The notes beneath the pieces are model-generated. The model worked only from the letters and a program-made list of their open reading frames with translations. It made no database searches and was not told the DNA's origin. Positions 28,240 through 29,809 of a DNA stretch of 64,000 nucleotides are shown in pieces. The stretch lies in assembly GCF_057098645.1 (NCBI RefSeq), contig NZ_CM169472.1. One strand, written 5' to 3'. Every line of letters starts with the position of its first letter. Position 1 is the stretch's first letter. Both the position numbers and the translations under genes were made by a program.

Positions 28240-28581
28240 ATGGCGTTCACTGACCTTGAATATCAAGCGGTCAAAAAAGAAGTTCACCAATTCATTGAAA
28301 GCATAAGGCCGCCTGAACATATCCGCAATGAACTGGATATTGTTTATAGCATCAATGACCAAACGATAGATATCGGCGAACAGCGCCCCGTGTGGCAGGG
28401 CAACCCAGGTGAAACAAACATCCTGCCATCAGCAAGAATCAAGTACATACGTTCTCTGGATAGATGGAAAATCTATTGGATGCGGAAGGATATGAAATGG
28501 CATCAGTACAGTACTGAACTTTCGCTGACTGATGCGCTTGAGCTTGTGCGTGCTGACCCGGATTGCTGCTTCTTCGGATGA
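28240..28581 (+). CDS. Hypothetical protein, first gene of cI-linked cassette
   Basis: 113-aa ORF 60 bp downstream of cI, same strand. Confidence 0.5.
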   Translation: MAFTDLEYQAVKKEVHQFIESIRPPEHIRNELDIVYSINDQTIDIGEQRPVWQGNPGETNILPSARIKYIRSLDRWKIYWMRKDMKWHQYSTELSLTDALELVRADPDCCFFG

Positions 28582-28597
28582 GTGAAGAGACGTTTGG

Positions 28598-29086
28598 ATG
28601 ATGGATGATCGCAGAGATGCTCGTAGAGCATACAGCGATGCAGGAGAATTTATGGCACTTAATTTAGAAAGAATATCTTTTATAACCCCATTTGATAGCA
28701 GCGAAGAACCCAACCAACCGACGCTTAATTTTACATGCAATGAATTTCCTGCGCGGCTATCAATTGATTTCAGGGTTGGTATGATCGGGTTGAAACCAAA
28801 TTCAAGATATAATTTGGGTATTATGGTAATCCCCGCGCACCTAATTATAAAAAAAGGTGAGGAAATTCAATTCCCTGACGGCTCTTCGGAATCAGTTTCA
28901 CTTTTCATCGATACGAAAGATAGCCATTTTGAAACAGGGGTTGGCGGACAGGTAATAGTAACATTGAAAGAAATTAGGGTCCCAGCTAAAGGGCTGTATA
29001 GTGTTATAGGGATATTGCAAGATAATGAAGACCCTAAAAATGAACTTCATAAAAATGAATCATTTTTCACCGTAGAGCTATTATGA
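28598..29086 (+). CDS. Hypothetical protein, second gene of cI-linked cassette
   Basis: 162-aa ORF, AT-rich, no recognised motif. Confidence 0.5.
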   Translation: MMDDRRDARRAYSDAGEFMALNLERISFITPFDSSEEPNQPTLNFTCNEFPARLSIDFRVGMIGLKPNSRYNLGIMVIPAHLIIKKGEEIQFPDGSSESVSLFIDTKDSHFETGVGGQVIVTLKEIRVPAKGLYSVIGILQDNEDPKNELHKNESFFTVELL

Positions 29087-29703
29087 GTGACGACAGTAAT
29101 TTAAATAATCATGGAAAGCAAGACACCAACATATCTGAAAGCCGGAGGTTGAAGGTTGTTGGCGGTTCCGATTTTGAGGCTGAATTTGATAATTCTCCCA
29201 CCAAGGTGCAAAATAATTACATAAAACCGCCACAAACGGAGGAAGAAGTGGGAACGATCAGCAGAGAGGAACTTGATGCTCGCTTAGCTGCTAATAAAGC
29301 AGAGATGGAGTCTATTGCTTCTTCCATTAGGGCTGACATGGCTCTATCTCGTGAAAGCGTTAATGTCCAATTTGCATCACTTAATGCAGCCATAAGCTCT
29401 CTATCGTCCAAGATCGATGGAAAGATGGATAGCGCTGCTGGCGATATAAAAGCAATTAATGGGAGATTCGAAGGAATTCAAGGACAAATAACAGGGGTTA
29501 ATACCGCAATTAGTGGTGTTCAGTCGGGTATTTCTATACGATTAGCCATTTTTAGTGTCATTATCGCTGTAATAGTTGCGATTCCCGGGCTGGTATCAGC
29601 TTTAAAGTCAGACCACGCACCTTTGCAACAGCCTTCCACTTTGCAAGCGCCGCCACAAAATACCCAGCCAACAGACAACAAAAAAACCACTCCCCAGCAT
29701 TAA
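29083..29703 (+). CDS. Coiled-coil, C-terminally membrane-anchored protein, third gene of cI-linked cassette
   Basis: 206 aa; 4-nt overlap with upstream ORF; hydrophobic helix ISIRLAIFSVIIAVIVAIPGLV then Q/P-rich tail. Confidence 0.5.
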   Translation: MSDDSNLNNHGKQDTNISESRRLKVVGGSDFEAEFDNSPTKVQNNYIKPPQTEEEVGTISREELDARLAANKAEMESIASSIRADMALSRESVNVQFASLNAAISSLSSKIDGKMDSAAGDIKAINGRFEGIQGQITGVNTAISGVQSGISIRLAIFSVIIAVIVAIPGLVSALKSDHAPLQQPSTLQAPPQNTQPTDNKKTTPQH

Positions 29704-29711
29704 CGCATTAA

Positions 29712-29737
29712 CCCGGCCTCAGCGCCGGGTTTTCTTT
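29712..29737 (+). terminator. Rho-independent terminator ending the cI operon
   Basis: cccggc-ctcagc-gccggg followed by ttttcttt. Confidence 0.7.
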
Positions 29738-29809
29738 GCCTCACGATCCCCACACCTAAAAACACATTGAACCGCCCCGGTTTTCCTGGAGAGTGTTTTA
29801 TCTGTGAAC

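Follow-up and report, generated by a model that had tools for sequence, protein, structure and literature searches.

In phage lambda, rexA and rexB encode a soluble cytoplasmic protein and an inner-membrane protein, and they lie between the repressor gene cI and the terminator of the cI operon. RexB is polytopic, with four membrane helices. We analyzed a stretch of 64,000 nucleotides (the window; NCBI RefSeq assembly GCF_057098645.1, contig NZ_CM169472.1) that holds the immunity region of a lambdoid prophage, in leftward orientation. In the same slot and on the same strand as rexAB, this prophage has three co-directional open reading frames (ORFs): ORF1 (28240-28581, + strand, 113 amino acids), a DUF3024 protein; ORF2 (28652-29086, + strand, 144 amino acids), an Ig-like beta-sandwich protein; and ORF3 (29083-29703, + strand, 206 amino acids), a predicted tail-anchored coiled-coil protein of the inner membrane. 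The resemblance to RexA/RexB is one of layout, with a soluble component and an inner-membrane component behind the repressor. None of the three proteins has a Rex match in PADLOC, Pfam, NCBIfam, or PHROGs. Unlike RexB, ORF3 has one hydrophobic helix (residues 154-175) and a long coiled coil and is not polytopic, and ORF2 shows no resemblance to RexA.

ORF2 and ORF3 have counterparts in phages HK542 and HK244 (the HK542_035 pair; GenBank EF120457, EF120458, and JQ086373). The two genes are 98.8% identical at the nucleotide level, and their order, overlap, and terminator are the same. Like the HK542 pair, ORF2 and ORF3 match phrog_5893 and phrog_5820, are adjacent, and overlap by ATGA. In contrast to the window, HK542 and HK244 have the pair directly behind a cI of the lambda type (likened to the lambda repressor in the record), where lambda has rexAB, and there is no DUF3024 gene; the pair is annotated there as hypothetical only. 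The sequences of both immunity regions reportedly come from Degnan and colleagues (2007).

The other close comparison is to the Shiga-toxin (Stx) phage 933W, whose gene order is cI, L0084 (the DUF3024 gene), L0083, stk, L0081, and then the terminator. The window does not have the Stk kinase, the RuvC-like L0083, or L0081; ORF2-ORF3 are in their place and show no similarity to them. No protein in the window matches PD-T4-6, and the DNA match between the window and 933W skips this interval. The Stk kinase matches the defense family PD-T4-6 (E = 1e-37), which shows that anti-phage cargo does occupy this slot. This kinase is said to exclude HK97 (Friedman and colleagues, 2011). A similar architecture reportedly occurs in mycobacteriophages Sbash (gp30/gp31) and Butters (gp30/gp31), where a cytoplasmic protein and a membrane protein are encoded next to the immunity repressor, are expressed from the prophage, and act against heterotypic phages. 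Those systems have other hosts and unrelated proteins, so the likeness is of architecture only. The immunity regions of Gifsy-1 also hold genes with experimentally shown roles in defense (RemAIN and GiPD474; PMC12724215, PMC13043305). We considered the three-gene RemAIN system as a relative of the genes in the window and rejected it, as it is comprised of an ATPase, an immunity protein, and a HEPN nuclease.

We found that the DNA from cI to the terminator serves as a cargo slot for two independent accessory modules: ORF1 alone, and the ORF2-ORF3 pair. The conserved 3' end of cI on the left and the intrinsic terminator of the cI operon (tM; 29710-29740, + strand) on the right bound this slot, and modules are exchanged in between. 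The terminator has an 8-pair stem that is followed by a T-run (folding energy of -17 kcal/mol, z = -3.8), and it has exactly the sequence of the annotated tM of 933W and of the matching site in HK542. Between cI and this stem-loop there is no other terminator-like site on the + strand, so none separates the genes from cI. An earlier note on this DNA, which was made from the sequence alone, had placed the genes in this slot and had described the last two as AT-rich and overlapping by four nucleotides. These statements are correct: the overlap is ATGA at 29083-29086, and the G+C content is 37-39% over 28650-29250 (ORF2 and the start of ORF3) versus 44-46% in cI. The boundaries of the three ORFs were also as described, except for the start of ORF2. 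The mechanical reading (28598-29086, 162 amino acids) begins inside a 3' remnant of cI. The start codon is probably the ATG at 28652, behind AGGAG; all of the homologues start there, and RefSeq and the HK542 record annotate it likewise. All three ORFs code for proteins: they fall into conserved families, and relatives of ORF2 and ORF3 are found in several genera.

Each module is preceded by what looks, from its sequence, like a recombination linker for the exchange of cargo. Linker 1 (28204-28239, + strand) has a 3' remnant of a lambda-type cI (28204-28230, CAGTGGCCAGAAGAAACGTTTGGGTGA, encoding QWPEETFG*) and the ribosome-binding site of ORF1 (GAGGAGG). We identified it by reading the sequence and by alignment to the 3' end of HK542 cI; the C-terminus of HK542 CI (...SQWPEETFG) is the genuine counterpart. 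Linker 2 (28584-28651, + strand) has a second remnant of a lambda-type cI (28584-28601, GAAGAGACGTTTGGATGA, encoding EETFG*), followed by the ORF2 leader and its ribosome-binding site (AGGAG). ORF1 is flanked on both sides by these remnants. Linker 1 is also found ahead of the DUF3024 gene in 933W, and the copy in Salmonella phage ST160 is more diverged, with an identical 3' end. Between 27752 (inside cI) and the end of ORF1, the window and 933W share about 98.5% identity, and the window is 98.8% identical to HK542 and HK244 from 28583 (two bases past the stop codon of ORF1) to just beyond tM.

The two modules also assort independently across genomes. Among 5426 complete E. coli genomes, ORF1 is present in 226, ORF2-ORF3 in 50, and both are adjacent in 17. 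Among 50,697 phage records, ORF1 is present in 144 (mostly Stx phages), and ORF2-ORF3, as counted with ORF3, in four (HK542 and HK244 only). All 18 E. coli-type loci from IMG/VR contain ORF2-ORF3, and 12 of these have DUF3024, adjacent to the pair in each case; the 21 more distant loci all contain ORF2-ORF3 and none has DUF3024. The earlier note had considered the genes to be a three-gene cassette, and this would imply a single system in which the DUF3024, beta-sandwich, and membrane proteins act together. In favor of this, the genes adjoin each other and share one direction, no terminator-like site interrupts them, and the exact trio is found in 17 E. coli genomes and in 12 of the 18 E. coli-type loci. 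However, 209 of the 226 genomes with DUF3024 lack ORF2-ORF3, 33 of the 50 genomes with ORF2-ORF3 lack an adjoining DUF3024, and DUF3024 is missing from 21 of 21 loci of other types. HK542 and HK244 have ORF2-ORF3 without DUF3024. Conversely, DUF3024 precedes unrelated cargo in 933W and ST160, and in a Morganella phage no co-directional gene directly follows it. A recombination linker also lies between ORF1 and ORF2. The distribution of these sequences largely refutes the three-gene reading, which we consider to be highly improbable. The ORF2-ORF3 module has the signs of cargo: a low G+C content, a patchy occurrence (in 0.9% of E. coli genomes), and copies that occupy further cargo sites of phages.

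We think that there is about an even chance that ORF2-ORF3 has a role in defense or exclusion. The earlier note had seen no recognizable motif in the three proteins. This was wrong for ORF1, which is a full-length match to DUF3024 and to the candidate defense family PDC-S43 from PADLOC (see below). ORF2 matches phrog_5893 (function unknown; E = 3e-50) and ORF3 matches phrog_5820 (E = 9e-77), and neither has a significant match in PADLOC 2.0, NCBIfam 20.0, or Pfam. Sequence and profile searches of the Protein Data Bank (PDB) also gave no credible match for either protein. Profile searches (PADLOC, PHROGs, NCBIfam, and Pfam) gave no homology to a non-defense function. Weak matches of ORF3 to LmuB (E = 0.016), SlaB, MakE, Baculo_PEP_C (E = 0.0016), sigma-1, and haemagglutinin were rejected as due to coiled-coil composition.

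Structure prediction gave a confident model for ORF2, which is a compact Ig-like beta-sandwich. A fold search with this model found only generic Ig-like domains and uncharacterized small proteins, so no function can be derived from these matches. ORF2 lacks a signal peptide and is therefore cytoplasmic. Its family is small: a search of 1.84 billion proteins yielded 34 representatives at E ≤ 0.001. Two remote relatives of ORF2 are encoded directly behind cI and are followed by overlapping genes for short tail-anchored coiled-coil proteins (104 and 122 amino acids). As judged from these sequences, the architecture of a soluble protein with a tail-anchored protein recurs beyond the ORF3 family. 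The short proteins (phrog_6324 and phrog_6136) were tried as homologues of ORF3 and rejected, with hhalign probabilities of 2.9% and 0.9%.

The model of ORF3 has low confidence overall (mean predicted local distance difference test, or pLDDT, of 58), which is too poor for a fold search. A long helix with Gly-containing heptads (residues 61-139) and a hydrophobic helix (residues 149-173) are visible in it, with a Pro/Gln-rich tail after them, and the Kyte-Doolittle hydropathy reaches its maximum (2.71) at residues 156-174. The model and the hydropathy both support the description in the earlier note, which was of a coiled coil, one C-terminal membrane helix, and a Q/P-rich tail. Because ORF3 lacks a signal peptide and its only hydrophobic helix is C-terminal, we expect that its N-terminal 150 or so residues are in the cytoplasm and that the C-terminal helix spans the inner membrane. 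Clustering at 90% identity divides the ORF3 family into 67 clusters; every one is from Enterobacterales and carries a hypothetical annotation. In an alignment of homologues, a variable N-terminus of about 55 residues is followed by a conserved helical block (SREELDAxLxANKAE...) and by a run of Gly-containing heptads (INGKFEG IQGQITG INTAISG IQSGIS), in which the insertions in homologues are of exactly seven residues. The C-terminal part has one hydrophobic helix and then a Pro/Gln-rich tail. Most of the relatives have the motif QPIIIQVPQ in this tail; the ORF3 of E. coli does not, and has PSTLQA instead. Within E. coli there are 0-3 differences per gene, which is too few for the ratio of non-synonymous to synonymous substitution rates (dN/dS) to be informative. 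In E. coli strain 2014C-3061 (locus L029), the ORF3 homologue has a deletion of six residues in its periplasmic tail.

These features bear on whether ORF3 might exclude other phages at the membrane. Classical exclusion proteins, such as P22 SieA, T4 Imm, and HK97 gp15, are small inner-membrane proteins that are made by prophages, and in this respect ORF3 is similar. ORF3 might keep phage DNA from entering, through its tail in the periplasm or because it occupies an entry factor, so that the cell would survive. The conservation of the short motif QPIIIQVPQ after the membrane helix in most relatives is consistent with this. However, about 150 residues of ORF3 are expected to be cytoplasmic, as is its soluble partner, and this points to intracellular sensing. 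The PIIIQ part of the motif has been lost from the E. coli protein, and neither ORF2 nor ORF3 matches SieB or a similar exclusion family in Pfam, PHROG, or PADLOC. We consider superinfection exclusion of this kind to be unlikely.

We believe from the sequences that ORF2 and ORF3 are a functional pair whose translation is coupled. In eleven genera, we examined one relative of ORF3 each, and all eleven have a small gene (92-150 amino acids) directly upstream. Of the full-length loci from IMG/VR, 38 of 39 have an upstream partner gene within 80 nt, and 36 of 39 have a repressor homologue ahead of the pair. The partners belong to at least four families that have no detectable similarity to each other. 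These are family A, which is the beta-sandwich family of ORF2; family B, with 92-97 amino acids, from Yersinia and Leclercia; family C, with 98-101 amino acids, from Pectobacterium, several Enterobacteriaceae, and possibly Xenorhabdus; and family D, with about 120 amino acids and two CxxC pairs, from Enterobacter and Morganella. Of the IMG/VR loci, 28 have a partner from family A, four from B, three from C, and three from D. In Morganella morganii, the ORF3 homologue in a myovirus tail-gene cluster is directly preceded by an un-annotated ORF (locus L022, about 3640-3990, frame 2) that has two CxxC pairs; its layout is like that of the D partner in Enterobacter.

Pairs of the E. coli type are found behind five different types of repressor (18 IMG/VR loci). 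Other pairs are in different cargo sites of phages. In Xenorhabdus, the pair is in a P2-like element between the tail-fiber and sheath genes, which we take to be the Z/fun position on the P2 map. The pair is within a myovirus tail cluster in Morganella, and it is in a tail-gene region near the prophage edge in Yersinia. In locus L063, the pair is in another site that is not behind a repressor.

The variable N-terminus of ORF3 tracks the identity of the partner. ORF3 contains the N-terminal adaptor motif LKVVGGSDFEAEF, and the general form h[KR]VVGGSDF(xxxF) is present in all ten of the effectors with a clear family-A partner, even if the partner is just 29% identical to ORF2. The motif h[KR]VVGGSDF is absent from all ten effectors whose partner is from family B or C. 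In its helical core, E. coli ORF3 is 70% identical to an Enterobacter effector with a D-type partner, and 59-60% identical to two other A-paired effectors. As the core is closest to that of a D-paired effector while the N-terminus follows the partner, the partner and the adaptor seem to move as a cassette, apart from the core. Such co-variation is expected if the partner docks on the adaptor, but common ancestry may account for it as well. The genes themselves were already in the databases; the novelty lies in seeing that the effector is conserved while its partners are interchangeable and its adaptors match them.

A coupled two-gene operon with a small protein upstream and a membrane protein downstream might instead be an addiction pair that stabilizes the prophage, with ORF3 as a membrane toxin that the upstream protein neutralizes. 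The co-variation of the upstream partner with the N-terminus of the membrane protein would fit. We also found a natural disruption of the ORF3 homologue by IS1 in E. coli CFSAN064035 (NZ_CP031134.1; locus L030, 1944-3083), after about codon 128, with the upstream ORF2 intact. If ORF3 is harmful, then this is the expected direction of decay, but a single disrupted copy is an anecdote and gives a weak hint. Neither ORF2 nor ORF3 has a recognizable toxin or antitoxin domain, including those of type II systems, in PADLOC, NCBIfam, or Pfam. Furthermore, ORF2 is a well-folded, compact beta-sandwich, which is unlike the usual labile or DNA-binding antitoxin. We therefore view an addiction pair as quite improbable. 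It would also overlap with defense by abortive infection rather than exclude it.

Returning to the proposed role in defense, we can offer a mechanism with the same logic as RexA/RexB of lambda, but built from unrelated proteins. Both modules would be transcribed with cI from the promoter PRM in the lysogen and would act on superinfecting phages. ORF2 would bind ORF3 at its N-terminal motif (LKVVGGSDFxxxF) and serve as the specificity or sensor subunit. If ORF2 meets a phage product, then ORF3 would be released or re-arranged. ORF3 would then oligomerize via its heptad region, and the inner membrane would be damaged or blocked, so that the infection is aborted. We infer the expression in lysogens, the contact between ORF2 and ORF3, the anti-phage effect, and the action at the membrane. 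This specific mechanism, with ORF2 as the sensing subunit and ORF3 as the inner-membrane effector, is a tentative suggestion. We make a similarly cautious proposal for the wider family: ORF2-ORF3 may be, though we would not bet on it, an undescribed combinatorial class of prophage defense in Enterobacterales. A tail-anchored effector would be combined with interchangeable cytoplasmic sensors from at least four unrelated folds, each matched to its own docking motif, and specificity would change by swapping the sensor together with the adaptor.

ORF1 is a single-gene module and is a plausible candidate for an anti-phage gene. Residues 4-113 match positions 2-112 (of 112) of the Pfam model for DUF3024 (PF11225, E = 2.7e-31), and residues 1-113 match positions 1-115 (of 115) of the PADLOC profile PDC-S43 (E = 7.2e-42). 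It also matches phrog_3467, and a sequence search of the PDB found no relative. PDC-S43 is one of 145 candidates that were picked for their location inside BREX, DISARM, or type I restriction-modification systems (bioRxiv 10.1101/2024.01.29.577857). ORF1 is 98% identical to L0084 from 933W, 88% identical to the copy in ST160, and 33% identical to the copy in the Morganella phage. In every annotated phage that we examined, across four different types of repressor, DUF3024 is the first gene behind the repressor. In 933W, it is followed by the RuvC-like gene (L0083) and the kinase. In ST160, it is behind an unrelated c2 repressor (23% identity) and ahead of a ParA-like ATPase. The repressor of the Morganella phage has a C-terminal domain that is 53% identical. 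DUF3024 is again directly behind the repressor in the IMG/VR loci, including those with lambda-type repressors and with repressors of the type in the related locus L026. This constant position fits with either a favored insertion point or a role that is linked to the repressor.

Two side observations concern these DUF3024 loci. In Stx2 phages of the VT2-Sakai type (for example, AP000363.1, 10557-10858), the homologue of DUF3024 matches in two pieces, with 83% identity. It is un-annotated in many records and is possibly a pseudogene. The ParA-like ATPase of ST160 (locus L027, 2981-4054) has 357 amino acids and resembles GiPD474 of Gifsy-1 (an ATPase of about 361 amino acids) in its size, position, and domain type.

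Several points weigh against a defensive role for these modules. First, ORF2 and ORF3 lack significant matches to the known families for defense, toxins, or exclusion that we searched in the databases named above. The confidence of the ORF3 model is low, and its oligomeric state and topology are predicted. The link between adaptor and partner could stem from shared ancestry instead of contact. For ORF1, PDC-S43 is listed by its authors as a candidate only (bioRxiv 10.1101/2024.01.29.577857), and its constant position as the first gene behind the repressor fits a repressor-tied role as well. Finally, co-transcription with the repressor is not proof of defense: the hex gene of phage 434, which is in a similar position, acts on repressor cleavage (PMC3564112).

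Hex is thus a precedent for a non-defense gene on the cI transcript, and the genes in the window might likewise have a role in the prophage or its host that is unrelated to other phages, such as in repressor stability, the tuning of induction, a change to the envelope, or the fitness of the lysogen. DUF3024 stays directly behind the repressor even at 33% identity in the Morganella phage, and we found no defense domain in ORF2 or ORF3. On the other hand, DUF3024 is also found behind the unrelated repressor of ST160, and it has been found within BREX, DISARM, or restriction systems outside of the immunity regions of prophages (bioRxiv 10.1101/2024.01.29.577857). The relatives of ORF2-ORF3 in the cargo sites among tail genes have no repressor nearby, which argues against a repressor-specific role. 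Overall, we consider a role of this sort to be a minority possibility that still deserves some weight.

We now consider the rest of the immunity region. Its gene order is cro (27128-27361, - strand), cI, the three co-directional ORFs on the + strand, the terminator, an insertion sequence, and the gene for antiterminator N (31523-31906, + strand). The cI-type repressor (27475-28179, + strand, 234 amino acids) matches phrog_4 (transcriptional repressor; E = 6e-38) and is a hybrid: over residues 81-234 it shares 95% identity with CI of 933W, while the N-terminal DNA-binding domain is unrelated to it. The operator region near the repressor also differs from that of 933W, so the immunity specificity should differ as well. 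Despite this difference in the specificity region, the C-terminal domain of the repressor and the DUF3024 gene are common to the window and 933W. Antiterminator N, whose length and position are as in 933W, marks the start of the PL operon on the far side of the immunity region, and there is a promoter-like site ahead of it (31246-31274). The related locus L026 also has a SieB gene, elsewhere in the locus.

The insertion sequence (29768-31077, - strand, 1310 bp) is from the IS3 family, of the IS629/IS1203 type, and is inserted between tM and PL, outside of both modules. We read its inverted ends and found a 3-bp target duplication (CAT) and the transposase ORFs, as well as an ALIL frameshift pseudoknot within the element (30626-30742). 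Relatives carry the uninterrupted insertion site (...AAAAACACATAACCAATTG), and the best-matching features from E. coli genomes are annotated as IS3- or IS1203-family transposases. The OR and OL regions are 1.3 kb further apart as a result of the insertion. The exact junction between the cassette and this element is present in none of the 5426 complete E. coli genomes.

Elsewhere in the window, Rfam matches identified the lambda cIII thermoregulator (33402-33460, + strand), the small RNA STnc100 (16167-16333, - strand), a tRNA-Met (17186-17261, - strand), Peptidase-S11 RNA (49730-49810, - strand), and naRNA4 (61459-61536, - strand). The last two are chromosome-associated families, which hints that the DNA past about 40.6 kb is from the host. 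Near the tRNA, there is no ORF of the length of the Shiga-toxin A subunit, though the backbone is 933W-like; an ORF of 428 amino acids at 38449-39735 was not searched.

We looked in the literature for DUF3024, PDC-S43, HK542/HK244, defense hotspots in immunity regions, and tail-anchored effectors of abortive infection, and the papers that we could search include no functional study of these genes. The PADLOC version that we used is from 2023, so a later description is possible. If ORF2-ORF3 does protect lysogens, then it would be a new defense family made of proteins without known domains, and its fixed effector, swappable sensors, and docking motifs would be well suited to the study of how specificity changes. 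DUF3024 would gain a function that can be tested. As DUF3024 adjoins the repressor in most of the 933W-type Shiga-toxin phages, this would concern many pathogenic E. coli. These genes could also influence the efficacy of therapeutic or biocontrol phages against lysogens of E. coli, Klebsiella, Enterobacter, and Salmonella. Should the genes not be defensive, this locus would still be a well-mapped case of the mosaic exchange of cargo at the 3' end of cI.

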